The notes under the pieces were generated by a model. That model saw only the letters and a program-made list of their open reading frames with translations, made no database searches and was not told where the DNA came from. DNA of 64,000 nucleotides, taken from positions 71,655 through 135,654 of IMG/VR virus record IMGVR_UViG_3300037483_000443; one strand, given 5' to 3'. A program made the translations under genes and the position numbers. The stretch comes from a virus. Every line of letters begins with the position of its first letter. The stretch's first letter is position 1. Positions 10,038-52,952 of this stretch are shown here, one piece after another.

Positions 10038-10114
10038 TGGTGCGACTGGGGAGGATCGAACTCCCGTTGACGCGGATTTAGAGTCCGCCGCTAAAACCAC
10101 TCAGCTACAATCGC
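10038..10114 (-). tRNA. tRNA-Sup(CUA), amber suppressor
   Basis: acceptor GCGATTG/CAGTCGC-A-CCA, anticodon arm GCGGA-CTCTAAA-TCCGC, T arm GGGAG-TTCGATC-CTCCC; own promoter at 10131-10159. Confidence 0.9.
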
Positions 10115-10130
10115 GTTATTTGATAAGAGA

Positions 10131-10159
10131 ATTATATCATGTGCATCTAGAAAGTAAAC
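10131..10159 (-). promoter_or_regulatory. early promoter
   Basis: GTTTAC-N17-TATAAT with extended -10 TG. Confidence 0.8.
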
Positions 10160-10163
10160 ACTT

Positions 10164-10493
10164 TTACCACCGGCTCAAAACATCTTTGTCAGTTTCATCG
10201 ATCTCCGGGAGCAACGGCAGAAACCGATCTTTGTTGTCGATGATCCACTGACAAGTATCTACCCAGCCGTGATCTGTTTCACGGACTTCCGCCGAGTACG
10301 GGCGTAGATATGTGATCAAGTATATTGCAACCCCGTGAGGAAATTCTATTCCAGCTTCCTCAAAGTCCGGTTTGTAGGAATAGCACTTATCACCGTGAGC
10401 TCCGATGATTCCGGCATTTAGCTCCCAATCGAGATTGAGCTTCGCAAAGAATGCCGGAAGATGCTTCTCAAGCCATTTGTAGTGATCGATCAT
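10164..10493 (-). CDS. hypothetical protein
   Basis: 109 aa, last of a coupled early run (10490-10678, 10678-10929, 10932-11183). Confidence 0.65.
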   Translation of the reverse strand: MIDHYKWLEKHLPAFFAKLNLDWELNAGIIGAHGDKCYSYKPDFEEAGIEFPHGVAIYLITYLRPYSAEVRETDHGWVDTCQWIIDNKDRFLPLLPEIDETDKDVLSRW

Positions 10494-11333
10494 GATGCCT
10501 TCCCACGGTGAGTAACTTGAAATCCGGCGCGACGTGCAGCATCAATTACATCGTTGACACTGTGTTCATATTTGCGCCTACAGTCACGATGGCCCTTCAT
10601 GTAGCCGATTATGAATCCTGTCGTTCCTCCAATAGTACCGAAGAATAACCATCCCATCAGCAAAGCGTGGTCGTTCATTACTTGACTCCCTTAGAGATCG
10701 TGGCGAAGCAGCGTCCGGGGATGAACGAAGCTGAGAAGTCAGTTCTGCGAATTTCGTTTCGTTCTTTGATCGACTTTTTGTCCCATGCAACACAGCGAAT
10801 GAGGGTTTCAGGATCGGGAGTGTACGGAGTAGAGATACCCCAGACTTTCTTACCTTCTACTTGGGTGATGAAGTGTCCAGCGATAACTTCACCGACTTTG
10901 GGACGAGCATTCAGGATGACGTCGGTCATTTCTACCTCGCGATGTACATGATGGCTACAACTTCTTCGATGTTATCAACCGGGTGAAACACCCCGACGAC
11001 ATCGCCTTGGTCTAAACGTTGGAATCCCATCGGATAGTTGGGGTCGGATGAGATGACTTCATCGACCAGATCGGCAATGTCGTCGCCTGCATAGTCGATT
11101 GAGTTCAGACGTTCTTCACCGACGTAGAAGTCTCCCTCGACTCCGTTGAACGTCACCAGATATTTGCCGGATGGAGTCTTCATCTCAGTATGCTCCCAGA
11201 GCGAGTTGTTTACCGCGGGCTCGGCTTACATGCTTTCCAAATTTTGCTTTGTGGCGACCGGTACCAGAAGATTTTGAGTGCTTTGCGACGAAATTATTTG
11301 TTTTCATATTACCTCCGTTGATTTAATGGAGTA

Positions 11334-11362
11334 ATTATATCAAAGCACTCAAGAAAGTAAAC
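11334..11362 (-). promoter_or_regulatory. early promoter
   Basis: GTTTAC-N17-TATAAT. Confidence 0.8.
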
Positions 11363-11562
11363 AACTTTGTTCAGTCTTTTGACCAACCGCCACCGGAAAG
11401 TTTAGTTCTCCATTGCGGAGATTGACAGTGAGTACATTGTCGATGTTGAATGTTATTGAAGTGAATGCTACTGCGACCTTTAGTAGAGACCCAACTACCG
11501 TAAGTGTGAAAACCGAGTTTGCAAAGAATCTTGTCAAGCATCTTTCCCTCCGTTAATACTCG

Positions 11563-11595
11563 TCAGCTCTGTTCACTACTTAGTGAACAGAGCTG
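11563..11595. repeat. perfect inverted repeat/hairpin
   Basis: CAGCTCTGTTCACTA-ct-TAGTGAACAGAGCTG downstream of thg1. Confidence 0.7.
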
Positions 11596-11651
11596 CATCT
11601 TCCATCGCGAGAAAGCTCTCACGGATGAATTTATAGATGCAGCTCCAAACG

Positions 11652-12431
11652 TTAGAAAAGATCTTCAACGGTTAGATCAGACATATATGGCAGTTCAACC
11701 GGCTTCACCGGTCGACGCGTCACTAACTCAGTGGTACGGTGCTTCTCGGGAATCTTTGCTAGCTCAAGCTCAGTGAGAGGGCGCTTCTCCTCAACGCGAC
11801 GGAAGTAAGTCCCCTTCCGGTAGCAAGAAGCATAGTTCTCCCACGGATCACCGATCTCACGCAGCATCTGCTTCTTTGCTTCACTGCTAGCTCCATGCAG
11901 CACTCTGTCAGAGAAGTGTGCTTGGGCTACCATCGAGATAGAGTTCTTGATCGCATCTTTCTCACGCCACAGTAAGCACTGGTAAGCTTCATGTAGCGTA
12001 GGAACTTGCCATACTCGTGCATCAAACAGCGGCAGAGCATCTGCTTTTTCAGGTAAGACAGCTGCCAAGTGTTTGTTGAAGTACGCAGTGGCAGTTGCCG
12101 AGAGAATCGAGCAGATCTTTTGGTAGCGTCCGTCAAAAATGTACTCTTGAACTGCGTCTGCTGGAAAGAACCAAACAAGAGTTATCTCATCTGATTGAGT
12201 GTAACCGATTAAGGCACAAGTTTGCTCGACGAGGTACTTTGTGGTGTCTTGCATCAGCTTCGTCAGATTCTCATCAAAAGGGCGCTTCAACCCCTTCGTG
12301 AAGGTGTGAAATGCTCGCCCGTCAAGCCTAGCAATCATCGGCATCCCGATCATGGCTTTACGAGAACCTTCTACTCCCTCGAGAGCTTTCATCTTGTCGC
12401 CGAGGGTATCGTTCTTTGCTATGTTTGTCAT
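11652..12431 (-). CDS. tRNA(His) guanylyltransferase Thg1-like protein
   Basis: RLDGRAFHTFT, YTQSDEI, FDGRYQK, FDARV, WRE.DA.KNSI motifs. Confidence 0.92.
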   Translation of the reverse strand: MTNIAKNDTLGDKMKALEGVEGSRKAMIGMPMIARLDGRAFHTFTKGLKRPFDENLTKLMQDTTKYLVEQTCALIGYTQSDEITLVWFFPADAVQEYIFDGRYQKICSILSATATAYFNKHLAAVLPEKADALPLFDARVWQVPTLHEAYQCLLWREKDAIKNSISMVAQAHFSDRVLHGASSEAKKQMLREIGDPWENYASCYRKGTYFRRVEEKRPLTELELAKIPEKHRTTELVTRRPVKPVELPYMSDLTVEDLF

Positions 12432-13735
12432 TTTCTCTTGTTCCAAAGTGCGATTGCAGAATACACTGCTTCGTTCCCAACGATCGCGCCAGACCCTGTT
12501 CGACCCCCTGTATCACTCGGTCCGCAAGCCCCGCAGTTGCATGAGACATATACTGAAGTTGCCGGTTGACCAGAGTACGAGATTCCGTTCGGCTGTGATC
12601 CACAGAATGGGCAGGATTTCAGCTCTCCGATGAAAGCATTCCGGACGATCTCAGATTTCGTCTTTAAGACAAAGCTCTTGATCTCTGACGGCTTCAGGCC
12701 TTTCACCATCTCTGTAAAGTCCAACTCCAACAAATCGTTGAAAGTGTTCTCAAGATTGGTGAAGAAGTCTTTTGCTTTATCGTCGAATCGATCCAACTTT
12801 TCCAACTTTTTCGTCAACGTGATCATGTTATACAGGTCGCCGTTCTTGATTTCTTCACGAAACGCATCGAAGACCTTAACGATCTGCTCAATCTCTGGCT
12901 CGCCAGACAACCGAACGATTTGAAAGATCTCGTCAACTTTCTGCATGAACTTGCAATAACGTGCTACGTCGCTCGGAACGCGGAACTTTTCCAGCTGTTC
13001 CTTGGTCATAGTGCCTACTTCCAAGAACAAGAACTGCTTCTCATCTAGTGAGAGAATTTCCTCTACCTCATCGGTGTATAGACAGGGAATGACTAGTCCC
13101 TTCAGACGTTCAACCAAGTGCAGAGCACCGATGCTTAGCAAGAAGTTGATACCGATACTAGGACGTTTCTCCGACAACAGCTTGGTCATCTCCGTCCAAA
13201 TCCGGTCAGCAGACAGGGCGTCCAGTTCACCGCTCTCTACTAGCTTACGGCAGAGCTCGACAGTTTCGGGAGCGATCTTGAACCTGTAGCGAGAAGCGAA
13301 GCGAGCAACGCGGATGACCCGCAGAGGATCTTCGGCGAAGGCTTCACTCGTGTGACGGATGATGCCGTCCTTCAGATCCTGACGACCATGCCAAGGATCG
13401 ATGTACTCACCGGTCTCCAAGTTGTAAGCGATCGCGTTGATCGTCAGATCACGACGCAGCAGGTCGTCGTTGATGATGATGTGCGGTCCGAACTCGAACT
13501 CAAAGCCTTGGTAGCCAGCAGCGACTTTCTTTTCACGACGAGCAAGAGCATACTCATCACCGGTTTCAGGATGGAGGAAGACGGGGAATGAAGCTCCGAC
13601 CTGCTTGAAACCTTGGTCGAGCATGTATTGAACGTCGGCCCCGACTACGACGTAATCAAGATCTTTCGGCTCATTGCCGAGAAGCTTGTCTCTTACTGCG
13701 CCGCCAACGAGCAGGCATTGAACTTTTTTAGTCAT
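12428..13735 (-). CDS. cca: CCA-adding tRNA nucleotidyltransferase with C-terminal Lar-like Zn finger
   Basis: VGGAVRD, DLDYVVVG, RRDLTINA, EDPLRVIRVARF; tail LKSCPFCG...CNCGA.G...AIALWNKR. Confidence 0.92.
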   Translation of the reverse strand: MTKKVQCLLVGGAVRDKLLGNEPKDLDYVVVGADVQYMLDQGFKQVGASFPVFLHPETGDEYALARREKKVAAGYQGFEFEFGPHIIINDDLLRRDLTINAIAYNLETGEYIDPWHGRQDLKDGIIRHTSEAFAEDPLRVIRVARFASRYRFKIAPETVELCRKLVESGELDALSADRIWTEMTKLLSEKRPSIGINFLLSIGALHLVERLKGLVIPCLYTDEVEEILSLDEKQFLFLEVGTMTKEQLEKFRVPSDVARYCKFMQKVDEIFQIVRLSGEPEIEQIVKVFDAFREEIKNGDLYNMITLTKKLEKLDRFDDKAKDFFTNLENTFNDLLELDFTEMVKGLKPSEIKSFVLKTKSEIVRNAFIGELKSCPFCGSQPNGISYSGQPATSVYVSCNCGACGPSDTGGRTGSGAIVGNEAVYSAIALWNKRK

Positions 13736-13768
13736 CTTGATAAATACTTGAAAGTGAAAGGGATTTCA

Positions 13769-14503
13769 ATGTTTCTTCAAAACAAATATACAAAGTGGTA
13801 CATGAACATTATAACACAAGCTAAGCTTGATGTAAACAACAGAAGTGAAGGGTATTTTGAGAAGCATCACATCATTCCAAAATCTCTTGATGGATCTGAT
13901 TCAAAAGATAATTTGGTGAAGCTAACAGCAAGAGAGCATTTCATCTGTCATACACTTCTTATTAAGATGTTAGAAGGAAAAGCAAGACAAAAGATGGCGT
14001 ATGCAATGTACTTTTTAATGAATAGAAAGAATAGAAAAGAGCAATTGAAGATCAACTCTAGAATTTTTCTCTTCTTAAGAGAAGAACATTCAAAAGCAAT
14101 TTCTATGGCTTTGACTGGATTAGAGAGATCTGAAGAGCATTGTAAGAATCTTTCTCTAGTTGCTAAGAAACGAGTAGATTCTGGAACTTGGAATAATCCT
14201 TGGGCGGGAGAGAAAGGATCCGAGATGTCATCTCGACAGAATAAAGAAAGGGTGCTGAAGGGTACTAACCCATGGGCAGGAAAGAAGGGTTCTGAACTTT
14301 CTAAGAAGATCTGTGCAGAACAAATCAAGAAAGGAACTCATCCGTTTCAAGATCGAGAGAAGGCAAGAGAAAGAACATTGAAACAAGTTGAAAATGGGAC
14401 ACACATGACCCAAGTTGAGCATACATGCCCTCATTGTGGAAAGACGGGAACTGGATGGACGATGTTCAGGTGGCACTTCAAGAATTGCAAAACTTTAAAA
14501 TGA
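13769..14503 (+). CDS. HNH homing endonuclease
   Basis: EKHHIIPKSLDGSD...NLVKLTAREHFICH; GT(N/H)P(W/F) repeats; C-terminal CPHCG..WHF.NCK; GATAAATA upstream. Confidence 0.88.
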   Translation: MFLQNKYTKWYMNIITQAKLDVNNRSEGYFEKHHIIPKSLDGSDSKDNLVKLTAREHFICHTLLIKMLEGKARQKMAYAMYFLMNRKNRKEQLKINSRIFLFLREEHSKAISMALTGLERSEEHCKNLSLVAKKRVDSGTWNNPWAGEKGSEMSSRQNKERVLKGTNPWAGKKGSELSKKICAEQIKKGTHPFQDREKARERTLKQVENGTHMTQVEHTCPHCGKTGTGWTMFRWHFKNCKTLK

Positions 14504-14728
14504 AGTTACCACCAGGCAAATTCGAGGCATGGTTTGTGATACATGCCAATAAATGTACTGCACCCATTCTCAAAACCACGACAATCACGACAAGTTATCT
14601 TACATTGTCTCTTTGCTTCTTTTTCATCATGATTCTCCATGGCAGCAAAACGGGTTCCCGCTCTCTTTGTAGAATGAATTTGGGAGGTGAACTCATGCTT
14701 ATTTTCTTTTGTAGTTTTGCGTGGCATG

Positions 14729-15043
14729 TTATCTTCGATTCGAAGAAAAGTTGCGAATTGCTTCTGCTGTTGAAGTCATTGAAGAGATTCCTCTCTTTTT
14801 ATCTTGCTCTTCAGCGTAAGAGATGTAACCCTTGCTTTCGAGGATGGGAAGAGGGCTGAGATGCTTCGCTCTCTCTGTGAAGTATTCTTCGGGAGTGAAG
14901 TTGGTGATAAGAAATTTTACGAAATGTCGCGCTGATCGTGTTGGACTAACGTGTTTGAAACGAGCAACAAACTCTTGATCATGATATACCCAAACTTCTT
15001 GAGGATGAGCATCAACACTGATATTCCATTCTTTAGATCTCAT
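14729..15043 (-). CDS. hypothetical protein
   Basis: GGAGG RBS behind early promoter 15064-15092. Confidence 0.65.
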   Translation of the reverse strand: MRSKEWNISVDAHPQEVWVYHDQEFVARFKHVSPTRSARHFVKFLITNFTPEEYFTERAKHLSPLPILESKGYISYAEEQDKKRGISSMTSTAEAIRNFSSNRR

Positions 15044-15063
15044 ATCTTCCTCCTTAAAGGGTA

Positions 15064-15092
15064 ATTATATCACAGTGCTCAAGAAAGTAAAC
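15064..15092 (-). promoter_or_regulatory. early promoter
   Basis: GTTTAC-N17-TATAAT. Confidence 0.8.
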
Positions 15093-15094
15093 AC

Positions 15095-15487
15095 TTATGC
15101 GATAAAATCTGAAGAGTCTTCTGAGAATAGATCTGGAAGATCCATCGTTTGATTGGCAAGAGAATGGGTGCAATCACCCAAGAACTGAATTCGACCGTCG
15201 GTGACGAAGCTGTGGCAACGATCATCTACGTACTCACCTTTCCAACCCACTGGAGCTGGATTGTCATTAGAGTAACCTTTGGGATGCCGGTAAGTCACCA
15301 GAACGCTAGGGGAAAAGGTAGGTTTCTCGATGTTACCATTCCAACCCCAGTTGCTATTGCCTCCCTCGATCATCACCTGATGAAGCCCATGTCCTGTTTT
15401 GGCGCACCCTGGGCATCGAAAGTATAGAAAGCGATGGGTTTCAGTTCGAATTTCTCCGAGAACTTTAGAGATTTGGTTTATCTTCAT
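15095..15487 (-). CDS. Cys/His metal-binding protein (DUF6527-like)
   Basis: CPGC...H...WNG...PTFSPSVL...RCHSFVTDGRIQFLGDCTH. Confidence 0.65.
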   Translation of the reverse strand: MKINQISKVLGEIRTETHRFLYFRCPGCAKTGHGLHQVMIEGGNSNWGWNGNIEKPTFSPSVLVTYRHPKGYSNDNPAPVGWKGEYVDDRCHSFVTDGRIQFLGDCTHSLANQTMDLPDLFSEDSSDFIA

Positions 15488-15673
15488 TACTTTGGCTTCT
15501 CGTAGTATATAGATCGATGCTCAGAAAGATGATTGCTACGGTTGTGTTGAGAATTGGTATGAGAGTGATCGCAAGAGCGAAGGCCCATTCTTGGGAATCT
15601 TTCACACATCTATAAGTCACATCTACGTATGCATAGTAGACACAAATGAAGAATGAAACCCAATAGACGTACA

Positions 15674-16623: not shown

Positions 16624-16705
16624 GATCTTCTTTCTCTTCTATAAATAAAATGTCTATCGCGAGACTGGAATCTCCATAGACTCTAACGCTTTTGGGAGCA
16701 TCAGC

Positions 16706-20395: not shown

Positions 20396-21031
20396 TTAAC
20401 CGATTTTTTCACCGGTGACATGGTTTGTTACAATGTCATCTTGGCTACGATATGTTTTAATCTTATCACCACGCATCCCAGCTCCTCGAAGATCTCTCTT
20501 TTCATCGTTCTTTCGTTTCTGCTCTTGATTAGAAAAATAACTTCTAACTTTTGCTTCAAGAAGAGATCTAGCATTTTTCTTGTTGGTATGTTGACAACGC
20601 TCTCTAGCAATTGCTTCTATTCCAGTAGGAATGTGCCGCATGACAACACATGAGTCTGTTGTATTAACATGTTGTCCACCCGGACCGCTAGATTTCTTGG
20701 TGAAGACCGTGATGTCACGATCGTTCAACTTCCACTCAGCTTCTTCTGGAACGATCATTGCTACTACCGTCACTGTTGAAGTGTGAACTCGTCCTTTACG
20801 TTCAGTGGGTGGGATTCGTTGCCACCGGTGACCGCCCGACTCTTGGAGCAATCCCCGGACGAGATTGTCTGGCCCATCGATCGTTAGATTGATTCAGCCG
20901 TGTTGCTCTTCAAAGTCAACTCGAGCGTTGATCCGCTCTGCAAATCGTGCGTAGATGGTAGCTTGGTCATTGACCAAGAGCTTTGCGTCTTCTCCGCCCT
21001 CACCTGGGCGGATCTCTAAACTGATCTTCAT
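20396..21031 (-). CDS. short RF1-type peptide chain release factor with in-frame UGA at codon 46 (20894-20896)
   Basis: ATG 21031 with AGGAG RBS: MKISLEIRPGEGGEDAK...EEQHG*INLTIDG...ESGGHRWQRIPPTERKGRVHTS...GPGGQHVNTTDS; both parts in one frame. Confidence 0.85.
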
Positions 21032-21083: not shown

Positions 21084-22070
21084 CTAGGAGTCTTTCTTTC
21101 CAACAAGGTGTCCTGTTCCATTGCAACAAGAACATTCTGAGATTGGTTGATTTAGATGAAACATTAGCTCGTTAAGATAAAGCCTTACATTCTCGATCAA
21201 GTCTTCAAGAGAATTACCCTTGAAACCTTCGATCGGAGTGTAGCCTTTGTACTTGTTGATGTTGTCTGTCATCTCGAAAATCTCAACTAATTTCGTGGTG
21301 ACAGTACGATTAGTGATGCGAGGGCGAGCGTATGATTTCCCATTTGGCTTCTTCTCTTCGTAAGTGTTCACGATCGGTTTGATCTGAATCTTTTTCTTGA
21401 CAGTAAAGCAGAAGTCATAGTCACTCGTAACTTCAGCATACATGCGATCAAGGTTCTCCTTGACATATTGACGCACAATCTTGTATGATTGTGCTGAAGT
21501 GATGTAACATGGACGCTTGTGCAAGAGCAAGTCGGGGATCAACATCTTCTCAAGTTCGTACCAATTCACGACCGTGCTCAAGTCAAGTTCTTTAACCTTC
21601 TCCCATGCTCCGTCGTTCTTGATTCGAATCTTCATGTCTGATATGCTTCCAGGCAACTCGACTTCGATTTCGCCACAGTACTTGAATTCTGCAGGGTTGG
21701 TTACCCACTTGGAGGGTTCTTGATCAAATTCAGAACGATACAGTGACTGGAGCGTTGCGTGTTTTCCAGTCCATTCTCCGTCGTTATCATTGACCTCGGC
21801 TGGCCAGAGAACTGGCTGGAACCTATCTGCTAGAGATTCATCGATCAAAATGTACCGCTTGTTGATGAAACTACCGGTAGTGAACACTTCGTAAGATGAA
21901 GCTTCAGTTTCACCGGGGACAAAGTACCAAGACTGGTGAAAAGTAGGCATGATCGTCTGACCATTGATGCGGTGGCGATTTACGTCAAATACTTTCTGCC
22001 GTTCGCTTCCGTAGAACACAGAAGAAGCAACGTAGATGCCATTTGCTGACTTGTACCAATCAATTTTCAT
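21084..22070 (-). CDS. hypothetical protein with C-terminal CxxCxGxG
   Basis: 328 aa, AGGAG RBS before MKIDWY. Confidence 0.75.
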   Translation of the reverse strand: MKIDWYKSANGIYVASSVFYGSERQKVFDVNRHRINGQTIMPTFHQSWYFVPGETEASSYEVFTTGSFINKRYILIDESLADRFQPVLWPAEVNDNDGEWTGKHATLQSLYRSEFDQEPSKWVTNPAEFKYCGEIEVELPGSISDMKIRIKNDGAWEKVKELDLSTVVNWYELEKMLIPDLLLHKRPCYITSAQSYKIVRQYVKENLDRMYAEVTSDYDFCFTVKKKIQIKPIVNTYEEKKPNGKSYARPRITNRTVTTKLVEIFEMTDNINKYKGYTPIEGFKGNSLEDLIENVRLYLNELMFHLNQPISECSCCNGTGHLVGKKDS

Positions 22071-22081
22071 GTCTTCTCCTC

Positions 22082-22411
22082 TCAGAGGAACGAGATACTT
22101 GCTTTTGCCTTGAAAGTTCCAGCTTTCTGAACTTCCGGCCAATATTTAATGACGTCTTCGATCAGGTCAAGTGACGTTCTAAAGTCGGCTTCGATCGTCT
22201 GAATGCCTGCGCTGTACGCAAGAGGGTCTCCCTCTTCAGTGATGAACGTCACACTATTATCGCCAATCAAATCTTTTTCAGTGGACTTTGCGAACGTCAT
22301 CATGATACGTCCACAAAGTGTATAGGTACGAAGCACGGTGTCTCCGAACTGTCCGCTCATTCCGCGAACGTTGCAGGCCTCGATGATGTCAAACAGACCT
22401 TTGCGGTACAC
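22082..22411 (-). CDS. hypothetical protein, start uncertain
   Basis: frame stays open upstream to a TAG at ~22481-22483. Confidence 0.5.
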   Translation of the reverse strand: MYRKGLFDIIEACNVRGMSGQFGDTVLRTYTLCGRIMMTFAKSTEKDLIGDNSVTFITEEGDPLAYSAGIQTIEADFRTSLDLIEDVIKYWPEVQKAGTFKAKASISFL

Positions 22412-25448: not shown

Positions 25449-25519
25449 GATTACCTCCAGTTTTGTTTAGTTGCGATAGAGTAATTATATCAAAGTGCTC
25501 AAGAAAGTAAACAACTTTG

Positions 25520-28928: not shown

Positions 28929-29021
28929 TGGTACTCCTGCTGGGTAACGCTCCCAGTACTTGCCCTCATCTAGAGCCTTGGCGGGGTATAAAGCCGCTTG
29001 TTTTCTTTAAACTACAGGAGC
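28929..29021 (-). tRNA. tRNA-Ile(UAU)-like with long variable arm
   Basis: GCGG/CCGC stem with loop TTTATAC, variable hairpin GCTCT/AGGGC, T loop AGCGTTA, CCA. Confidence 0.65.
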
Positions 29022-29208: not shown

Positions 29209-29284
29209 TGGCAGGGGGTGGGAGACTCGAACTCGCCTAACCTGGTTTCAAAGACCAGTATGCATACCCTTGCATCTACCCCCA
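29209..29284 (-). tRNA. tRNA-Gln(UUG)
   Basis: loop CTTTGAA, G73, CCA. Confidence 0.8.
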
Positions 29285-29318: not shown

Positions 29319-29756
29319 ATGTCTCTACTAAACGAAATGCTCATCATCTCTCAGCTGAAAGAATCTGCTGGTAGTGATACAACAACTCTTACTAATCTTC
29401 CAGAGTTCAAGGAACTTGCAAAAGCAGACCCTGCTTTTGCAAAGAACCTCATTCTTGCTTGGAAGGGCGACTCGGCAGTTTATGCTAAGTCAGCAGGAAA
29501 GACCAAAGATCTTTTGTTCCCTTTGCTGTTCAAGAAAGATTACTTGGACAAGAAAGGTCAAAAGTTTGCAGAACTGCCACACTTTAAGCAGATCATCAGT
29601 GCTCTTGCTAAGGTCTACGCGAAAACTTTTCCACAGATCCCAGAAGATGCCCGAATCGACGTGGGTGTCTGGCACGACGTAAAGTGGAAACGAGCATACG
29701 AATCAGCTGAAGAACAGGCTGAGTATGATATGCTTCGCGAAGAACTTCTCAGTTAA
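29319..29756 (+). CDS. putative internal head protein inserted in the tRNA array
   Basis: MSLLNEM...LKES leader; TAAATA just upstream. Confidence 0.6.
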   Translation: MSLLNEMLIISQLKESAGSDTTTLTNLPEFKELAKADPAFAKNLILAWKGDSAVYAKSAGKTKDLLFPLLFKKDYLDKKGQKFAELPHFKQIISALAKVYAKTFPQIPEDARIDVGVWHDVKWKRAYESAEEQAEYDMLREELLS

Positions 29757-29994
29757 TCATTATCTTCATTGAAGAGCGTTACGATCGGACCAAGGTTCCA
29801 TACCTCATCAGTTTGGTAACGTTGTTGCAGCAAGTATCTCTGCTTCTGCAGTTCACGGTTGCTTGAATCTTTAAGCTTGATGATGCGCAGCTTGAAGAGC
29901 ATCCTTGCACCGAAGCGATCCTTGCCGAAGTTCAATGCGCAAAACGTTTCTAACTTCAACTTCTTATACTTCAACCACTCTCTCAGAGTCAGAT

Positions 29995-33827: not shown

Positions 33828-33920
33828 GGGCTCCCCAGGCAGGAGTCGAACCTGCATACCGTTCAAGACGGACTACGGCTGATTAACAGTCAGCTCTCTT
33901 ACCACACAGAGTCCCGGGGA
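33828..33920 (-). tRNA. tRNA-Asn(GUU) with long variable arm
   Basis: loop CTGTTAA, variable region with CCGT-CTTGA-ACGG, ends CC-C. Confidence 0.75.
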
Positions 33921-33947
33921 ATTGTATTACTACTGCTTATTGCAGTT

Positions 33948-35728: not shown

Positions 35729-35775
35729 CTCATTGAGAAGAGCATGAGTTGTATGCTTATGCTCTTCTCAATGAG
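35729..35775. repeat. 17-bp inverted repeat downstream of tmRNA
   Basis: CTCATTGAGAAGAGCAT...ATGCTCTTCTCAATGAG. Confidence 0.7.
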
Positions 35776-35799
35776 GAGTGGATCATTATCACCACCCTC

Positions 35800-36095
35800 A
35801 CCTATCCGCCTATTCCGGGTCTGTACGGTTACAAAGAGTCTATTGCTAGACTAGGCGGAACTTCAGCTTAGGCTGCGAGAGCCAGAGCACCATTTGCGTC
35901 ATTAGCACTTATGGTTTTGCTACGCTTAGGGCGTTCGCCTTACCCGTTGACTTTTCATTCTATCTCACCCAATCAAATCCAGGTACACCCCCATGATGGA
36001 TCTTATTGCTCGGTGGAGGTGGCGGGAATCGAACCCGCGTCTTGAGCGCCTTACCTTAAAAGGTGTCCTTTCGGACTACAACGATATTCATACAA
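35800..36095 (-). ncRNA. ssrA: two-piece (circularly permuted) tmRNA
   Basis: T arm+CACCTCC-A-CC (36041-36012) lies upstream of 5' end GGGGGTG (35992); G3-U70; tag GCT..TAA 35906-35868 = ANDANGALALAA*; promoter 36103-36131. Confidence 0.9.
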
Positions 36096-36222
36096 CAGAA
36101 GCATTATATCACAGTCTACAATAAAGTAAACATTTGGATGATTGCGAAGGAATCAACCTAGACGCAATCATTACTACTATTTATTGGCGCCTGCTCTACC
36201 AGCTGAGCTACATCGAAGATTA

Positions 36223-36949: not shown

Positions 36950-37384
36950 TTATATTACAGGTTGAGAAGTCTGTAAACTAAGACTGTATTTGAGAAAAGT
37001 AACGTCGCTGACTAAGATGTGGTGAGTCAACCAGTCAAACAGAAATTGCTGAAGTTCTATCGAGATGTCTTCGCCTTCTTTGAAACGATCAAGATATTTT
37101 TCAGCGTCTTCAAGTAGCATTCGGTGAGCATTGACGTGATCTTCATACTCTGGAAATTTAATCTTGAGCATCTCTTGCTCTTCAGAAGAAAAGTGATCTA
37201 CTGTTTGTTGAATCAACCGCCTAACGATCGAGATGATTCGGTCTTCTGAAGATCCGTCAAAACGAGCTTCATAGAGATCATTGATTGAATTAATGAGGGC
37301 TCTATGCTGCTCGTCTAGAACGCGAGAGCCAAGCATAAAATCATCAGGATTAAGTTGGAGTGGACGTGATAATTTCAAGTTCAC
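36950..37384 (-). CDS. bacteriohemerythrin
   Basis: LDEQH, HFSSEE, HVNAH, WLTHHILVSD di-iron motifs. Confidence 0.9.
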   Translation of the reverse strand: MNLKLSRPLQLNPDDFMLGSRVLDEQHRALINSINDLYEARFDGSSEDRIISIVRRLIQQTVDHFSSEEQEMLKIKFPEYEDHVNAHRMLLEDAEKYLDRFKEGEDISIELQQFLFDWLTHHILVSDVTFLKYSLSLQTSQPVI

Positions 37385-46654: not shown

Positions 46655-46655
46655 A

Positions 46656-46732
46656 GGTGATCAAGGATGGAATCGAGCCATCATCACCTATTTCTACAAA
46701 GAAACAGTGCTCTGCCATTGAGCTACATGATC
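46656..46732 (-). ncRNA. tRNA-like RNA with over-long anticodon stem and 4-nt loop
   Basis: normal D arm, CTGTTTCT-TTGT-AGAAATAG, T loop CTCGATT. Confidence 0.6.
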
Positions 46733-46734
46733 AT

Positions 46735-46824: not shown

Positions 46825-46909
46825 GGAGCGGGTGAACGGAATCAAACCGTCATACGACTTTCGTCTGCTTGCTTGGAAGGCAAGTGCCCTATCAATGGAC
46901 CACACCCGC
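46825..46909 (-). tRNA. tRNA-Gly(UCC) with long variable arm
   Basis: loop CTTCCAA, variable hairpin GAC-GAAA-GTC, ends CC-T. Confidence 0.75.
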
Positions 46910-47047
46910 ATTATCGATAAATCTCAGAATCTTCCGGTAGATACCGAAGTTCGTAAATCAGTATCGATTTTGATATTGTAACACAGACTCACTCAAAAGT
47001 AAACATATTTGTTGAGTCGGTTGAATTATTTATCGTTGAGCATCTTT

Positions 47048-47575: not shown

Positions 47576-47928
47576 CCGAGGTTACCAGACTTACGATCTG
47601 TTTCATTCAGGGCGCTGAGAAATGCATCAATCACTTCGATCTTGCTCTTCACCATCTGCAGAGCAGTGTGTCCACGTCCTGTGTCGTAGTATTCATTAGG
47701 ATATGCATAGTTAATGTCACTGCGCAACTCAGACATCGTTTTCTTCATGAACTTAATCGTGTCAAGATTTATGTTGTTAGCAAACATTTGAAGTCTTTCG
47801 TAAGGTATGAGATATTGTATCTTAGCTTAATTGCCTTGTACATTAAACTGGAAGAGAGAAATCTCTTCCAGTTTAATACGATACCATTAGAATGAGGCCC
47901 AAATTTAGCTCAGGACTTTGTGGTAACC

Positions 47929-48351
47929 TCAATCAACCAGGTTGATCTTACCGGCTTTCTCTGCAATAGCTTCCACGGAGTTACCAGACAGCTCGATCAG
48001 CTGACGAGCTAGCGGATCATTCTTCAGGTAGCGGTGTACATGCATCGTAGCAACAGAAAGACCTTGCCAACGGGTTTGACCGTTCATCAGCTTATTCTTG
48101 TTGGTGATTGGTGTGAAAGCGCTCTTCTTTGGGTCACGTCCCAGGATCAGATCATGAATCAGGAAGTAGCTAGAAGAAAGCTTTGCCTTGTCTGCTGTGA
48201 TCTCCTTCCAGAGCTTGAAGTATGCCTTCATGTCAGCGATCGGCTCTTCGATCTCAATCTTTTTCACTTCCATGATCGTTGGAGCTTTCACTTCAATTGG
48301 TGCAGTGGTCTTGTTCATGAACTTCTCGGTGATAGTCTTAATGATTTGCAT
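47929..48351 (-). CDS. hypothetical protein
   Basis: 140 aa, AAGGAG RBS. Confidence 0.7.
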   Translation of the reverse strand: MQIIKTITEKFMNKTTAPIEVKAPTIMEVKKIEIEEPIADMKAYFKLWKEITADKAKLSSSYFLIHDLILGRDPKKSAFTPITNKNKLMNGQTRWQGLSVATMHVHRYLKNDPLARQLIELSGNSVEAIAEKAGKINLVD

Positions 48352-48362
48352 GTTGTTTCTCC

Positions 48363-48818
48363 TTAAAATTTGATTTGGGCAAGTGCTGCATCTACTTTAG
48401 TCTTTACTTCACTAGCGATCGCTATCTTCACCAGACGATCAACTTCACTCTTTACACGCAATGCAATTGTAGCTTCTGCAGCTTTCATCTGAGCTTCGAT
48501 GCTGCTAGCAATTAAGCTTTCTATCTCTACGTTGGAAGCTTTGCATACCGCAGTCTTGATTTCATCTTTGAGAGTCTGTTTAAGCGTGATTGTTCTGCTC
48601 CAATTACCAGATTGATAAGAGCCGAAACTCTCGACAATTTTCGACTTTTCTGTTTCAGCTGCTTTCGACACAGCCGACTGGATGTCAGAGTCAACCCCTT
48701 TTACGAATCGACGAGCTATGTTTTCAAGCACACATTGTTGAATCTTGAGACGAAATTGTTCATCCTTCTCGATCAGTGATGCTAGTGCGTTAGTGTCTAA
48801 TTTAATCTCGATGCTCAT
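48363..48818 (-). CDS. hypothetical helical protein
   Basis: 151 aa, AAGGAG RBS. Confidence 0.7.
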   Translation of the reverse strand: MSIEIKLDTNALASLIEKDEQFRLKIQQCVLENIARRFVKGVDSDIQSAVSKAAETEKSKIVESFGSYQSGNWSRTITLKQTLKDEIKTAVCKASNVEIESLIASSIEAQMKAAEATIALRVKSEVDRLVKIAIASEVKTKVDAALAQIKF

Positions 48819-49023
48819 CGGTTTCTCCTTTAGATTGCTGCAATTTGGTCTGCAAAGTCATACATCTCTTTGTTCATTGATCTCATTCCTTCTTCATTAG
48901 AACGAGTCGTAATAAGATGATCGGTGTAATAGTCCCATTCACGATACAAAGTTTCACGAATGAAGAAGCGAATATCATCGAGCTCTTGTTGCGTCAAAGC
49001 AATAGTGTCATCATCAATTCGTT

Positions 49024-49356
49024 TCATGCTGTCTTCTCCTGGTTAAAAGTGATCCATGCTTCACAAAGTGTACGGCTTTCATCTTCAGCGTACAGCTCTG
49101 CGGTTTCTTTGATGAGGCTAATGCGAAGAGCAATTCCCTTCCTCTTAGACATGATGCCGTAGAGACCGCTCTTGCTGATTTCTCCTCTCTGCAGAGGACG
49201 TCCGAGGTGAAAGGTTACTCGCTCTGGACGATACTGTGGCTTATCTTTGCAGATGAAGTGAGCCAGATCTCGACTAAACGTGAGACGGTAGAGCTTCTTG
49301 TCATCACGAACTGCCCAGATCTTCTCAGATAGCTTACAGCTTCCAGAGCAGCTCAT
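49024..49356 (-). CDS. hypothetical protein
   Basis: MSCSGS start overlaps (ATGA) the stop of the Pth2-like gene. Confidence 0.65.
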   Translation of the reverse strand: MSCSGSCKLSEKIWAVRDDKKLYRLTFSRDLAHFICKDKPQYRPERVTFHLGRPLQRGEISKSGLYGIMSKRKGIALRISLIKETAELYAEDESRTLCEAWITFNQEKTA

Positions 49357-49715
49357 GATTGTTCTCCTGCCTTGTAGAGACGATACTTCTTGAAGTGATG
49401 ACGCTGCTCTGCCGTGAGGGGCACGGTAGCAAAAGAAGTATGGCTTGGTAGATAGCCTAGATTGTCGTCGGGCTCGTAGAAGAGAGCACAATCGATACCT
49501 TGTGAGGCTATGTGATCATGAGCTTTGAGGAGATGTTCCTCATCGCGAGCTTCGAGTAGAATGAGAGAAGTAGTCTCGTTGAACTTCTTACCAGCGAGAC
49601 CGGCTTTGAGACCTGCTTCAAGAGTTGCGTGCGCAGCTTGAACGATTTGCTGTGCAGCTGGGAGATCCTTGCGAATGAATGTGTAGCAGTAAGTCTTATC
49701 AGAAATCTACAGCAT
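49353..49715 (-). CDS. Pth2-like peptidyl-tRNA hydrolase family protein with UAG at codon 3
   Basis: AAGGAG-N5-ATG CTG TAG ATT...; downstream 117 open codons YTFIRKDLPAAQQIVQAAHA...FYEPD...TVPL; absent from ORF track. Confidence 0.8.
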
Positions 49716-49768
49716 GATTACTCCTTGGTTGGTTGAACTACAAAATTATTTATCGTTTAAGAAGATTC

Positions 49769-49798
49769 ATTATAACACAGTTGTCTTAGAAAGTAAAC
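49769..49798 (-). promoter_or_regulatory. early promoter of the Pth2-like gene
   Basis: GTTTAC-N18-TATAAT; late-type GATAAATA at ~49747-49754. Confidence 0.75.
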
Positions 49799-49807
49799 AA
49801 CTATGTA

Positions 49808-51217
49808 TTACAACATCGCGTGAACTTCACCCTTGTCGCAGTCCACACACACATCCATAAATTTTGTGTAGATTTTTGTTGCATTATCAAGCCGTAAGAT
49901 CTTAACGTTGAATTCACGTCCTACAGTAGCAAGGTGACATAGCTTACCACCAACCTCAGTGATCACAGCACCCTTTCCGTTTTTGCATGCAGATAGCATC
50001 GCGATCTCATAATCGGGGCTTGCCGAAGGAATAACGATGATAGATCCTTCAGGGACTGATTCTCCAGGTTTTGGCAGAACAACCCGCCCGATTGTAGTAC
50101 CCTTACCTGCAAGCACTGTACACTCAAAGCCGAGAAGCTCACGCTGAAGTTCATGCATTGCGTCGTACGCAGAACTAACGATTGGATTGCGATCGCCACC
50201 AATCATATCATACCACGTTTCGATCTCTAAACCAGCGCCGAGCAACCAATCAGTATGATATGGGTCATCATTGTACATCTTCCAACCGCTGGAAGATACA
50301 ACACTCCACGGTACGGTCATCATGTGACGGCTTCTAATTTGAAGCGCCCAACCTTCAAAAGCTCCTCGTGGAACACGAAGTTCACTTGTTTTGTTTCCGT
50401 TCTTGTCTTTGAGAGATAGAGTCATCCAACCCCTATCTCCGAGAGAATTTGCTTGTTCGATGATTTCTTTGCGAGCAGCTTCTATTCGAGCTTCATGTAT
50501 CTTCTTCATGACAGCTGCGACTCGCTCGACGCGTTCTGAATCTGAACGCTCTTCATCAAGAGCGACAATTGAAACGACTTCTTCCGTGATCTCATTATCT
50601 TCGGCTTCCCACCCACGACGATAGAAGAAGTGTCCAAACTTCAATGCATTATCTACCGATTCTTGTGGAGTGGTATTTTTTGTCATCCAAAGAGGGGGAA
50701 GACCTTCTGCTATCTTGAATAGAACGATGGTGTCTACATTTCCGTACTTCACGGTAAGCGCAAGATCTTTGAATTGATTATCAGCGTAAAATAGACTGCG
50801 TTTATAGCTGAATTCTTGTAGATCTTTACGATCCAGGCATGGGAGAGACCCACTGTTCAAGTATTCTGCTGCCCAGAGAGCATCTTCACGACCCCAGCGA
50901 TCGACGATTGCGTATGGTATGTAGCACTTGTGATCAGTGTGTTCATAGAAGTGGCCGTAAGCATAGCCTAGACGCTCGAGATATTCTTCAGCATCGTCAT
51001 CGACTAACTGGATTCCTTCTGGATCTTCAAATGATTGAATTCCAGTAAGACGCTTGGACCCACTAAGAATCGAGATTGCGATATCATGAGTCATACCATC
51101 AACATCGCGAATGAGGGCATTCAGTGAATAATCCCAACGCCCTTCCACGACGAGGTCTCGAAAGAAATCGGTCAAAAAATCGCCTGAAATAGAGAAGTGA
51201 ACAACTGTTTGTGTCAT
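49808..51217 (-). CDS. protein with C-terminal PEP-utilising swivelling phosphohistidine domain
   Basis: GAVITEVGGKLCHLATVGREFNV matches the GG..SHAAIVARE signature. Confidence 0.7.
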   Translation of the reverse strand: MTQTVVHFSISGDFLTDFFRDLVVEGRWDYSLNALIRDVDGMTHDIAISILSGSKRLTGIQSFEDPEGIQLVDDDAEEYLERLGYAYGHFYEHTDHKCYIPYAIVDRWGREDALWAAEYLNSGSLPCLDRKDLQEFSYKRSLFYADNQFKDLALTVKYGNVDTIVLFKIAEGLPPLWMTKNTTPQESVDNALKFGHFFYRRGWEAEDNEITEEVVSIVALDEERSDSERVERVAAVMKKIHEARIEAARKEIIEQANSLGDRGWMTLSLKDKNGNKTSELRVPRGAFEGWALQIRSRHMMTVPWSVVSSSGWKMYNDDPYHTDWLLGAGLEIETWYDMIGGDRNPIVSSAYDAMHELQRELLGFECTVLAGKGTTIGRVVLPKPGESVPEGSIIVIPSASPDYEIAMLSACKNGKGAVITEVGGKLCHLATVGREFNVKILRLDNATKIYTKFMDVCVDCDKGEVHAML

Positions 51218-51279
51218 GATGACTCCAATCTTGGAATGGAGTAATTATATCATGAGCATCTAAAAAGTAAACAACTTTG

Positions 51280-51594
51280 TTATTTTCTATGAAGCTTTCG
51301 TTTAATGACTCGTTGTTTGTTATATGTGAGATCTACATCCCACTCACCGAAATAGTCTTGATGATAGAAGAATTCATAGACTACATTGACCCAAATCTTA
51401 TCACCTACCCTCAGTTTATAAGCCGCGTTTGGGAGTGGAAGAGATTTAGTACTGAGAAGATCAAAGTCATCTCTTGCGGCGTCTTTTCCTTCCAGTGAAT
51501 GACCAGTGAGTATGATTGCATTCACGTCAAACGGAACATACTCACTGTCAGTTCTCTCGATGATCAATAGAGCCTTACCTTTGAGACATCTCAT
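51280..51594 (-). CDS. hypothetical protein
   Basis: 104 aa in coupled run. Confidence 0.6.
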   Translation of the reverse strand: MRCLKGKALLIIERTDSEYVPFDVNAIILTGHSLEGKDAARDDFDLLSTKSLPLPNAAYKLRVGDKIWVNVVYEFFYHQDYFGEWDVDLTYNKQRVIKRKLHRK

Positions 51595-52463
51595 AGCATA
51601 TCCATGTCATAGTTCAAGCAGTTCTTCACACGCTTGATGTACTCAGACTCGGCAATCTCTTTAGCATCATCAAGATCAGGCCCAACCCCACCGAAGCCAC
51701 CCCAGGGAGTCTCGTCGATCGTAGGGTCATCAAACTGCTTCCAACCCTTCCAGGTGATCAAGAATCTGCCAAACGGCGTCTCAGCAGTAACGTGGTGATA
51801 CCTACACTCTTCGCACGGTTCTTTGACGTCAGACCACTCTAATGGCTTAATCATGGTGCTAACCAAGGCTGAAGAGTTAGATCCGGGTTGAAGACATCTC
51901 CGATCGATGGTAGCTTCTCTGTAACCGGAAAATAAAGGTGTCCCTTAATCGGAACATCTGCATGTAGTCCTGGGGTGAGAGCGATGTTTATGACGATGTC
52001 ATTTTGATCTGTGATTATACAACACATCTAAGCACCTCTCAACATATACCAAACACGAATCCCCATCGTACCAGGTTGATAACCACTTGTAGAAGACAGA
52101 TCATAAAAGAGAGTCTCGACGCTGATCACACTGACGATCTGCATGTCTTTCTCTTGCTGAGTCTTCCAGTCATTGAGGGCTTTGATCGACGCGACCAGGT
52201 CATATCGCGTTCCACCGTTCAAGATAGGATGACAGGAAACCTTTTCAGTGAAATCTTTGCACTGGATAGTAGTCATTGGAGCTTTCTCAGTTCGTTAGGG
52301 TAACATTCAGTAATCCACTTGCACCACATAGGTCTCACGTCAATGTAAGCTCCATTGACGTAAACGATGATTCCGTTCTTGTTCTTTTGATGCTTCAGAG
52401 GAGCAATCGTAGTCAAGATCTCGACACGGTCACCGACTTTGAGCGCTGAACGACGGTTCTTCT

Positions 52464-52952
52464 TCACAGCAGAGGTAGATGATCGCATATTCCTTTTACC
52501 TGGCTTGGGTATGCCGGACCGATGACTCCACAGGTCAAAGTTTTGACGCCGTTGAACTCGGTCAAGCCGTTGTCGATGATGAGCTTAGTATTGAGCCCTG
52601 CAAGCTCTGCTTTTGTGATGACGTCACGAAGCTCTTGTTCACTTGTAGCACTCAAACATATCTTGGTAAAGCTCCCCTTGACGAGCCACTCTTCCAGAAC
52701 CGGAGTAAGGGGGATCATCAAGTAGCAATCACCGGCATCGCCCATGAATTCGGTGTAGTTATTGAAGATAGCACCGACAACTCCGTGAGATCCTTGCGCA
52801 ACCATCTTACCCTTGCGCATGTTCAGATCCTTTCGAAGGATGATCCACTGCTTGGGAACTTCTTCAACAGAAGGTGTGTCTTCAGCGAGGACTTTCTCGA
52901 GAACTTTTGTGTCTACTTCGTTCTCTAGAGCAGCTTTCATGAGTTTATTCAT
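52464..52952 (-). CDS. peptidyl-tRNA hydrolase Pth2
   Basis: RKDLNMRKGKMVAQGSH, TKICL, DNGLTE, T.T...IGP, HLPLL. Confidence 0.92.
   Translation of the reverse strand: MNKLMKAALENEVDTKVLEKVLAEDTPSVEEVPKQWIILRKDLNMRKGKMVAQGSHGVVGAIFNNYTEFMGDAGDCYLMIPLTPVLEEWLVKGSFTKICLSATSEQELRDVITKAELAGLNTKLIIDNGLTEFNGVKTLTCGVIGPAYPSQVKGICDHLPLL

Follow-up and report, generated by a model that had tools for sequence, protein, structure and literature searches.

Conserved in-frame stop codons as probable programmed gates of a Pth2-like gene and a domain-1-less release-factor gene in a tRNA-rich jumbo phage

Internal stop codons are tied to termination in two described systems: bacterial prfB is a class-I release-factor gene with an early UGA, and in phages with a changed genetic code a phage suppressor tRNA opens stop-bearing phage genes. 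Here we analyzed a 64,000-nucleotide stretch of virus DNA (positions 71,655 to 135,654 of IMG/VR record IMGVR_UViG_3300037483_000443; hereafter the window, in whose numbering coordinates are given unless stated otherwise) that holds two genes with an in-frame stop: Pth2L, which encodes a predicted peptidyl-tRNA hydrolase 2 (PTH2) fold and has UAG as codon 3, and mini-RF, which encodes an RF1-type release factor lacking domain 1 and has UGA as codon 46. Comparison with relatives confirmed, far beyond chance, the observation that both stops are conserved and, by their sequence pattern, programmed gates. The window makes up the right-hand 64 kb of a virus contig of 135,654 bp (G000; estimated 37% complete) from a jumbo myovirus of the tRNA-rich kind, whose nearest complete relative is G001 (345,069 bp, with terminal repeats) and whose nearest cultured phage is Ralstonia phage RsoM2USA.

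The mini-RF resembles prfB in being a class-I release-factor gene with an early UGA, and 52 of 81 mini-RFs share with prfB a Shine-Dalgarno (SD)-like run, a CUU, the stop and a +1 frameshift. It differs from prfB in that i) it is RF1-type and not RF2-type; ii) its site lies in domain 2, while that of prfB lies in domain 1; iii) the window gene and 28 relatives would be read through in frame with no frameshift; and iv) its product is not expected to read UGA. The text of Prince et al. reports no programmed frameshift in prfA among more than 12,000 bacterial genomes, and TGA in 98.6% of prfB motifs (PMC12421855). PrfH (RF-H) is like the mini-RF in missing domain 1 and having the GGQ domain; the mini-RF, in contrast, keeps an RF1-type PxT loop, there is no RtcB among the Pfam matches of the window, and its score against the PrfH model TIGR03072 was 74.6 bits, below the cut-off of 166.65.

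In the recoded phages of Borges et al. (bioRxiv 10.1101/2021.08.26.457843), as is predicted here, stop-bearing phage genes are opened by a phage suppressor tRNA, and phage release factors accompany it. There, however, the text describes many recoded late genes and a drop in code-11 density, whereas here the code is standard and a single UAG family is concerned, at codon 3 and beside the tRNA. RF1, RF2 and suppressors are reported in that work, the text of which, tables aside, does not mention stops inside release-factor or Pth genes.

PTH2 proteins (PF01981) share with Pth2L the fold, a Q-x-x-H-A helix motif and a D...T..A..P segment; Pth2L differs in being phage-only, below the Pfam cut-off, shorter in the loop at GKGK, UAG-gated and linked to suppressors. 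The bar minigenes of lambda are alike in having a two-codon open reading frame (ORF) plus stop and in their tie to peptidyl-tRNA hydrolase biology. They (AUG-AUA-stop) are free-standing, and their toxicity depends on Pth and is seen when Pth is low; the Pth2L mini-ORF, on the other hand, is fused in frame to a hydrolase-fold gene, and its stop is nearly always UAG.

PTH2 has already been noted in jumbo phages (Iyer et al. 2021, PMC7824862), and RF1, RF2 and transfer-messenger RNA (tmRNA) are listed for huge phages by Al-Shayeb et al. In the text on phage XacN1, a tRNA-CUA is reported and 18 amber stops were read through in silico with no target named (PMC5852040); in that on RsoM2USA, a tRNA-CUA is reported with its target only speculated on (PMC8504454); and a 2026 jumbo-phage survey, in its text, treats suppressors only with respect to alternative codes. 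The text of Burroughs and Aravind 2019 (PMC6514570) makes no mention of phage, frameshift, suppressor tRNA or Pth2. Full-text searches, limited to the main texts where the Borges, XacN1 and RsoM2USA papers are concerned, returned no description of either gate.

The UAG of Pth2L and the amber suppressor tRNA

The elements concerned are the following:

49353-49715, minus strand: Pth2L, a gene of predicted PTH2 fold; SD AAGGAG, AUG-CUG-UAG leader, 117 codons, stop
49707-49709, minus strand: in-frame UAG of Pth2L, codon 3, next codon AUU; read from the sequence, leader kept in 57 of 71 distinct relatives
49769-49797, minus strand: promoter-like site of the tRNA-CUA class, 5' of Pth2L; pattern match
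10038-10114, minus strand: tRNA-CUA, predicted amber suppressor; 77-nt ARAGORN cloverleaf, Rfam RF00005 57.8 bits
10131-10158, minus strand: promoter-like site TTTACTTTCTAGATGCACATGATATAAT, just 5' of the tRNA-CUA; pattern TTTACTTTCT-N12-TATAAT
36103-36130, minus strand: promoter-like site of the tRNA-CUA class, 5' of the tmRNA gene; pattern match

The 5' end of Pth2L reads AAGGAG-taatc-ATG(49713-49715)-CTG-TAG-ATT. Past the TAG, the earliest ATG, GTG or TTG of the 117-codon open frame comes 94 codons in, so there is no other usable start; a first-pass annotation of the window had indeed described a Pth2-like gene interrupted by UAG at codon 3.

The leader is kept across the family. Relatives of Pth2L were gathered at 95 loci (the window, 14 viral-contig loci and 80 of 98 metagenome loci), a QQIVQAAHA-type motif being present in 92 of the 95, with 71 distinct genes. 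Among these 71, an in-frame ATG...TAG leader was found in 57, an ATG...TAA leader in one (L127; ATG TTG TAA ATT), a TAG with no clear ATG in three and an ordinary start in ten. The leader consists of the ATG and exactly one codon in 37 of the 57 gated genes. The codon preceding the stop is most often for Leu (24) or Thr (18), the codon following it is GTN or ATN in 49, and the TAG is directly followed by G in 38 genes, by A in 15 and by C in four, never by T. Moreover, the SD-like runs are spaced correctly for the upstream ATG. From this conservation, the UAG of Pth2L is read as a programmed, conserved gate and not as damage.

Seven cultured phages were inspected, of which five are gated (the asterisk marks the stop) and two ungated:

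RsoM2USA: gated, ML*ISDK; gene unannotated
GAP32: gated, MAQ*NEK; annotation truncated
CBB: gated, MAQ*NEK; annotation truncated
ME3: gated, MT*IHE; annotated coding sequence starts 18 bases past the start of the match
Arash: gated, ML*NKH; annotation truncated
RaK2: ungated
XacN1: ungated

In XacN1 the Pth2L domain forms the C-terminal part of ORF364 (L400), a 279-residue ORF of 840 bases with no UAG gate; the two tRNA-CUA genes of XacN1 are thus still without a known target. Many database proteins of the Pth2L family begin at internal codons. A Q at the UAG position in five database proteins (P0001-P0003, P0018 and P0019) perhaps stems from code-15 gene calling and was not used as evidence.

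Pth2L is predicted to have the PTH2 alpha/beta fold. An AlphaFold2 model built from 25 sequences reached a mean predicted local distance difference test (pLDDT) score of 90.6, and in a Foldseek search with it archaeal Pth2 and human Bit1 came out on top (template-modelling (TM) score 0.66-0.78, E down to 1.7e-7), the match to MJ0051 having E 1.7e-7 and TM 0.77; the first 13 PDB rows listed (ranks 1-15) are of the Pth2/Bit1 family or related structural-genomics entries. Asp D80 is nearly invariant in the family. The best PHROG match of Pth2L is 34073, followed by phrog_1866 at 3e-11, which is the sole match (7.9e-29) of an uninterrupted PTH2 gene in the window. A search of 185,579 bacterial and archaeal species genomes for Pth2L gave just two 19-residue chance matches. 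On these sequence comparisons, Pth2L is placed as a separate, phage-only family.

The tRNA-CUA of the window has a canonical cloverleaf with discriminator A73, a short variable loop and an encoded CCA, and its anticodon stem is identical to that of the phage tRNA-Lys(CUU) of this contig. The claim of the first-pass annotation that an intact amber suppressor tRNA stands here with a promoter of its own was thus upheld by the ARAGORN cloverleaf, the Rfam score and the promoter-like site. With up to 2+1 mismatches allowed, the promoter pattern is matched at 22 places in the contig, of which 18 lie on the minus strand within the window; the sites are near-identical (TTTACTTTCT-N12-(TG)ATATAAT; for example 11334-11361, 15064-15091, 25484-25511 and 36103-36130). 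The tRNA-CUA, Pth2L and tmRNA genes are each preceded by this common promoter-like motif.

Gated Pth2L genes and tRNA-CUA genes are closely linked. By ARAGORN, each of the seven large records in which Pth2L is gated (G000, G001, G002, G003, G005, RsoM2USA and GAP32) has a tRNA-CUA, G003 having two copies. G004, a 46-kb fragment, has no tRNAs and ends at Pth2L; on the longer contig L163, where an identical copy of the gene is found, a tRNA-CUA follows about 370 nt downstream. Furthermore, within 1.5 kb on either side of the 80 metagenome Pth2L loci, CUA accounts for 33 of 107 tRNAs, all on the gene strand and spread over 28 loci, compared with 8 of 294 tRNAs in eight whole records, a rough base rate from eight records only, themselves chosen through Pth2L. 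The tRNA-CUA is therefore the predicted decoder of the UAG, and this would be the simplest mechanism for the Pth2L gate. The first-pass annotation had proposed that Pth2L is made when UAG termination by RF1 is leaky or suppressed, as part of a sensor/feedback loop; the tight linkage suggests a positive switch opened by the tRNA and not a sensor of failing host RF1.

Suppressors also accompany ungated members: records with ungated Pth2L carry CUA (G007 and G008) or UUA (G006), and ungated Pth2L genes lie near tRNA-CUA (L133 and L136), tRNA-UUA (L131) or tRNA-UCA (L164). At L131 (G006 37075-37150) the distance to the tRNA-UUA is 1.2 kb. The Pth2L family thus associates with all three suppressor kinds. 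Four-base-anticodon tRNAs (gcaa, ctag, caat) adjoin Pth2L genes at other loci, and at L189 and L198 a tmRNA lies less than 100 nt from the tRNA-CUA that adjoins Pth2L.

The interrupted mini-RF family

The release-factor gene of the window and its stop are as follows:

20396-21031, minus strand: mini-RF1 gene; 211 codons, starting at RF1 domain 2 (LEIRPGEGG), with PPT and GGQ
20894-20896, minus strand: in-frame UGA of mini-RF, codon 46, context GGC UGA A; aligned with the Gly of 'EHGG' in E. coli RF1

The gene runs from an ATG at 21031 through MKISLEIRPGEGG...EEQHG, the TGA and INLTIDG...GGQ... to a stop at 20396-20398. The frame past the UGA continues at 0 (GGC UGA AUC), so the window gene is not of the prfB-type +1 frameshift. 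It matches Pfam RF-1 (3.5e-24) with the catalytic motif SGPGGQH, and scores 181-184 bits against NCBIfam prfA, 111 against prfB and 75 against prfH. The PxT tripeptide has its flanking Q and T (RWQRIPPTERKGRVHTS; SPF in RF2), and the predicted specificity is UAA/UAG. The alignment spans residues 112-320 of the 360 of E. coli RF1, which means that neither domain 1 nor the C-terminal tail is present; in keeping with this, the prfA score (184.5 bits) is below the equivalog cut-off of 400. An RF1-type gene with one in-frame UGA at codon 46, as first annotated, thus stood as to the stop and the type, and was refined to a domain-1-less mini-RF1, which is not a full RF1. No match to the region came up among 50,697 phage records in a distant-mode blastn search.

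A search with a five-sequence alignment gave 128 viral relatives, the best 80 of which, with the window, made up 81 loci (not dereplicated, several near-identical) that were classified in three rounds. Uninterrupted genes were found at none of the 81 loci, the interruptions being these:

one in-frame TGA: 12 loci
two in-frame TGAs: 16 loci
one in-frame TAG: 1 locus
+1 frameshift at TGA: 44 loci
+1 frameshift at TAG: 7 loci
+1 frameshift at TAA: 1 locus

The closest two relatives (L003/L199 and L004/L200) have TGA at the codon position of the window. The in-frame-stop type comprises 29 of the 81 loci, with UGA as 44 of its 45 stops, and the base following these read-through stops is C in 25 and A in 20, never G or T. 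The other 52 loci are of the frameshift type. That most relatives would use a prfB-type +1 frameshift had not been foreseen by the first-pass annotation. The stop is preceded by CTT in 51 of the 52 (UUU once), with an SD-like run upstream in 44; one such cassette reads CGGAGG-GGT-CTT-TGA-C, its SD-like GGAGG standing 3 nt before the CUU. At two low-GC (guanine plus cytosine) loci, L253 and L261, a CTT TAG C cassette lies 16 codons 3' of its usual place, close to where the two-UGA clade has its second UGA (48 vs 46).

At 78 of the 81 loci the nearest ATG precedes the opening motif of domain 2 by one to seven codons (four in the window), which makes this a family without domain 1. PPT is present at 73 of the 81 loci and PPN or PQN in some others; RWQ stands where RF1 has RVQ. 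When 80 bacterial loci were put through the same script for control, 70 proved to be uninterrupted, ordinary prfA genes with a long N-terminus (RVQ; PET/PAT/PVT), and four had the phage-type signature (RWQ, PPT-PPN), all with the frameshift. Of the remaining six, two gave no GGQ match, one had no N motif, two were uninterrupted genes whose open N-terminus is short, and one was an odd case. Two frameshift mini-RFs in bacterial assemblies, L324 (Archangium gephyra chromosome; CTT TAG) and L321 (Thiobacillus denitrificans; CTT TGA), probably lie within prophages.

Purifying selection acts on the mini-RF gene before the UGA as well as after it. Between L199 and L200, the ratio of nonsynonymous to synonymous substitution rates (dN/dS) was 0.15 in the 45-codon part 5' of the UGA and 0.075 in the part 3' of it; between the window and L200, the proportion of synonymous differences (pS) was 0.84 upstream and 0.70 downstream, which is near saturation, and that of nonsynonymous differences (pN) was 0.21-0.25. 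Furthermore, the stretch 16345/16486-21200 is covered by independent Logan contigs of two runs, in which the TGA is unchanged; this speaks against an assembly error, although either run may be the source sample. Taken together, the UGA of the mini-RF, too, appears from its sequence record to be a programmed, conserved gate and not damage. The two checks that the first-pass annotation had set, whether the stops are conserved in position (57 of 71 Pth2L leaders; no uninterrupted mini-RF among 81) and whether both flanks are under purifying selection (dN/dS below 1 5' and 3' of the UGA), came out in its favour, and its view that both genes are gated by stop-codon decoding gains support from this conservation and purifying selection.

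RNAalifold, applied to seven loci of the read-through type, found no conserved hairpin beside the UGA (-5.0 kcal/mol, with a positive covariation term and a weak helix about 36 nt downstream); because no conserved hairpin follows the UGA, selenocysteine is unlikely there. In the flanks of L199-L278, tRNA-Met(CAT) makes up 39 of the 133 tRNAs within 1.5 kb of mini-RF genes. Directly upstream of the mini-RF of the window lies a homologue of Gad1 (anti-Gabija; 21084-22142, minus strand; Pfam 3.4e-65), and the two are probably co-transcribed, since there is no promoter-pattern match between them. The record G002, which has a gated Pth2L, carries a second, shorter RF-1-domain gene (contig 29747-29935, minus strand), a 135-aa open frame matching only profile positions 5-68.

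Readings of the two gates

For the decoder of each stop, the function of each protein and the purpose of the gating, we infer from the observed anatomy, conservation, linkage and selection two independent programmed-recoding gates, a UAG opened by the phage tRNA-CUA and a UGA set by UGA-termination capacity. We regard this reading as probable, with some reserve. At the UAG, a ribosome without suppression would yield fMet-Leu alone from AUG-CUG. Once the tRNA-CUA, served by the common promoter class, had been transcribed and processed and a host synthetase had charged it, this tRNA would decode the UAG and Pth2L would be made, so that Pth2L would behave as an AND gate that needs both its promoter on and the suppressor tRNA active. 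With the stop at codon 3, the closed gate would cost merely a dipeptide. Release on very short chains is slow, and the tRNA should therefore be favoured over RF1 at this UAG. Since ungated members also sit beside suppressor tRNAs, Pth2L would act either on the suppressor tRNA itself or on by-products that suppression leaves as peptidyl- or aminoacyl-tRNA.

At the second gate, the mini-RF would be made by read-through of UGA-A, and in most relatives via a prfB-like SD and a +1 frameshift at CUU UGA C; UGA-A and UGA-C are among the leakiest contexts in E. coli. Output would be low and would rise when UGA termination is slow (RF2 limiting). Frameshifting in prfB is set by the speed of UGA recognition, and the frameshift relatives would thus respond as the read-through mini-RF does.

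Several points weigh against this two-gate reading: i) Pth2L scores 22.3 bits against PF01981, below the gathering cut-off of 23 bits (and 18.1 bits against NCBIfam Pth2, cut-off 126), and in profile alignment to 2zv3 its GK loop lacks two residues and contains no Lys; the Lys of the GK loop and the Asp of the DAG segment, the latter kept in Pth2L, are the catalytic residues of PTH2, and hydrolase activity is thus not assured for Pth2L; ii) the best intragenomic match of the tRNA-CUA is a different tRNA in every genome, which gives no assignment of its amino-acid identity; iii) the base rate for CUA is rough, as said above, and, with ungated Pth2L beside suppressors, the linkage is not accounted for by gating alone; iv) an RF1-type mini-RF with PPT and flanking Q and T should not read UGA, so that the UGA gate would give it no self-regulation; v) the two-UGA mini-RFs of 16 relatives suggest an efficient UGA decoder in those phages, because leaky read-through of two UGAs would express very poorly; and vi) the mini-RF is gated by TAG at eight loci and by TAA at one.

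The strongest rival, which we hold to be possible but not likely, is that the mini-RF recognises UGA (or all three stops) and shuts off its own synthesis as RF2 does in prfB. A prfB-like gate (SD, CUU, stop, +1) is present at 52 of the 81 loci, and the stop is TGA at 72, which parallels the 98.6% TGA reported in the text on bacterial prfB (PMC12421855). The TAG and TAA variants exist, as a broad-specificity factor would predict; TGA is the commonest stop in two records with a frameshift mini-RF, G009 (171 of 273 ORFs) and G010 (183 of 266 ORFs); and the family has RWQ in place of RVQ, with PPN or PQN in place of PPT in some members. However, PPT is kept at 73 of the 81 loci, and so are the flanking Q and T, which in RF1 read the third base; moreover, NCBIfam prfA scores far above prfB.

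A further, rather doubtful idea is a suppression homeostat. Here the UAG-suppressed Pth2L would hydrolyse charged or peptidyl suppressor tRNA, or drop-off products, and so hold read-through at a set level, while the UGA-gated mini-RF1 would mirror this for termination.

The first-pass annotation had joined all parts into one sensor/feedback loop, in which the mini-RF and the tRNA-CUA compete at the UAG of Pth2L with tmRNA, ClpP and the uninterrupted PTH2 as backing. Every part does co-occur in this contig and in the complete relative G001, and an RF1-type factor and a tRNA-CUA would necessarily compete at a UAG; competition between mini-RF and tRNA-CUA is accordingly possible in this phage. 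The gates are separable, however, each being found alone in relatives: RsoM2USA and GAP32 carry a UAG-gated Pth2L and tRNA-CUA with no RF-1-domain gene (RaK2 has none either), G003 and G005 have a gated Pth2L without an RF-1 match (both records incomplete), and G009 and G010 carry a frameshift mini-RF with no suppressor tRNA. In addition, CUA makes up just 6 of the 133 tRNAs flanking mini-RF genes. The single circuit is thus only partly supported and, as a whole, unlikely; the gates that co-occur in this phage are independent modules.

Equally unlikely, in our estimate, is that a dedicated phage tRNA, such as a variant tRNA-Trp(CCA), reads the UGA of the mini-RF, both gates then being opened by tRNAs. 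G001 has two tRNA-Trp(CCA) genes, one of which (contig 317874-317947, minus strand), a possible UGA reader, carries a C.A mismatch that weakens the bottom of its anticodon stem, and the 16 two-UGA relatives require two UGAs to be read. A tRNA-Trp(CCA) with a 4-bp anticodon stem is reported to raise UGA read-through in E. coli (PMC13092985), but that work, in its text, tested top-opened stems and set bottom-opened ones aside. Furthermore, neither this contig nor G001 has a tRNA-UCA, the tRNA-Trp region lies outside this contig, and TGA terminates 86 of the 204 ORFs here.

The AUG-NNN-UAG leader might instead be a bar-like minigene or coupling device, with termination or dipeptidyl-tRNA drop-off followed by re-initiation at the next codon. 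Its layout is that of a two-codon ORF, as in lambda bar, and the codons after the UAG include ATT (10), GTG (2), CTG (2), ATC and ATA. Yet the next codon is GTT, GTA or GTC in 36 of the 57 genes, and these three are not known as initiators. The SD distance likewise fits the upstream AUG and not the post-stop codon, the stop is UAG in 57 of the 58 gated genes although re-initiation would not need UAG, and the linkage to tRNA-CUA is tight. We therefore consider this reading very unlikely.

A partial code change, with TAG or TGA reassigned as in code-15 or code-4 phages and both genes merely recoded, is highly improbable. In its favour, the text on recoded phages describes suppressor tRNAs and release factors in them (Borges et al., bioRxiv 10.1101/2021.08.26.457843), and just 37% of the genome is in hand. 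But greedy code-11 ORFs cover 93% of the 135,654-bp contig, with 204 ORFs ending in TAA (86), TGA (86) or TAG (32), which also bears out the first annotation that the other genes end normally. In the 345-kb G001 the cover is about 90%, and 55 of its 493 ORFs end in TAG and 200 in TGA. Cover was about 90% in nine of ten records examined and 81% in the tenth, the 54-kb fragment G006, and TAG serves as a terminator in all ten. At the 3.4-kb loci of the two-UGA clade, readings with TGA or TAG as sense lifted the cover by equal amounts. Many genes with in-frame TAG or TGA, together with low code-11 density, would mark a code-15 or code-4 phage, and neither was found; the contig is standard-code, and none of the ten records is a recoded phage.

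The scans for interrupted genes also argue against recoding, as they single out Pth2L in G000, and Pth2L and the mini-RF in G001. Among start-less frames after an in-frame stop, Pth2L was the sole credible extra case in the whole contig; candidates at contig 17004 and window 27460 proved to be out-of-frame noise. In a wider, noisy scan, read for G000 and G001, only the Pth2L frame stood out in G000, while in G001 the Pth2L and mini-RF frames were conspicuous among rows of which the rest, for example a TAG-bounded frame at 314384-314839, were not inspected.

That the genes are pseudogenes or assembly errors, as a stop where a sense codon is expected might suggest in each, has next to no chance, given that the stops are kept in dozens of independent assemblies and five cultured phage genomes, that dN/dS is well under 1 on both sides of the UGA and that two runs agree.

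Genomic context and significance

The genes of the window lie chiefly on the minus strand. ARAGORN found 43 tRNA genes and a tmRNA, and the Pfam matches include PhoH, gp30.3, ClpP, a CCA-adding enzyme, Thg1, Gad1 and PTH2. The three further genes named in the first-pass annotation, tmRNA, ClpP and an uninterrupted PTH2, are all present in the same genome:

5491-6123, minus strand: ClpP protease gene; Pfam 5.9e-36, context only
35772-36135, minus strand: tmRNA of the permuted (two-piece) type, tag ANDANGALALAA; ARAGORN and Rfam
52464-52952, minus strand: canonical PTH2 paralogue, uninterrupted; PF01981 1.2e-24, NCBIfam Pth2 75.5 bits

The tmRNA, also delimited as 35777-36103, scores 104 bits with the permuted (two-piece) model and 87.8 bits with the beta-proteobacterial model. 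Other features of the window are i) a tRNA-like gene with the four-base anticodon ttgt in an 8-nt loop (46656-46732, minus strand; ARAGORN; Rfam tRNA 45.1 bits); ii) a 93-nt tRNA-Ile(tat) (28929-29021, minus strand) and a 94-nt tRNA-Asn (33828-33921, minus strand) with long extra arms or inserts; iii) a further tRNA at 29212-29284, seen by Rfam only; iv) a Thg1-like tRNA-His guanylyltransferase and a fusion of CCA-adding enzyme and Lar-like zinc finger (11652-13735, minus strand), 1.5 kb from the tRNA-CUA; and v) a tellurite-resistance-type cluster (vWA-TerF-like, TerD-like, TerC/DUF475; 56104-60738, minus strand).

Suppressor tRNAs are common in standard-code jumbo phages, and the AUG-NNN-UAG leader offers them a conserved, testable target. 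Gene callers miss the gated Pth2L, as the absent annotation in RsoM2USA and the truncated ones in GAP32, CBB and Arash show. As cultured phages carry the UAG gate, experiments are feasible now, and both gates offer compact natural parts for gene switches that depend on a suppressor or on termination. Moreover, gating in the manner of prfB extends beyond RF2: the RF1-type factors of an entire phage family are obligatorily gated, mostly by UGA, which raises the question of what is sensed. If the homeostat were true, a giant phage with the standard code would run a controlled, transient change of stop-codon meaning, and the suppressor tRNAs of jumbo phages would gain their first defined targets and logic.

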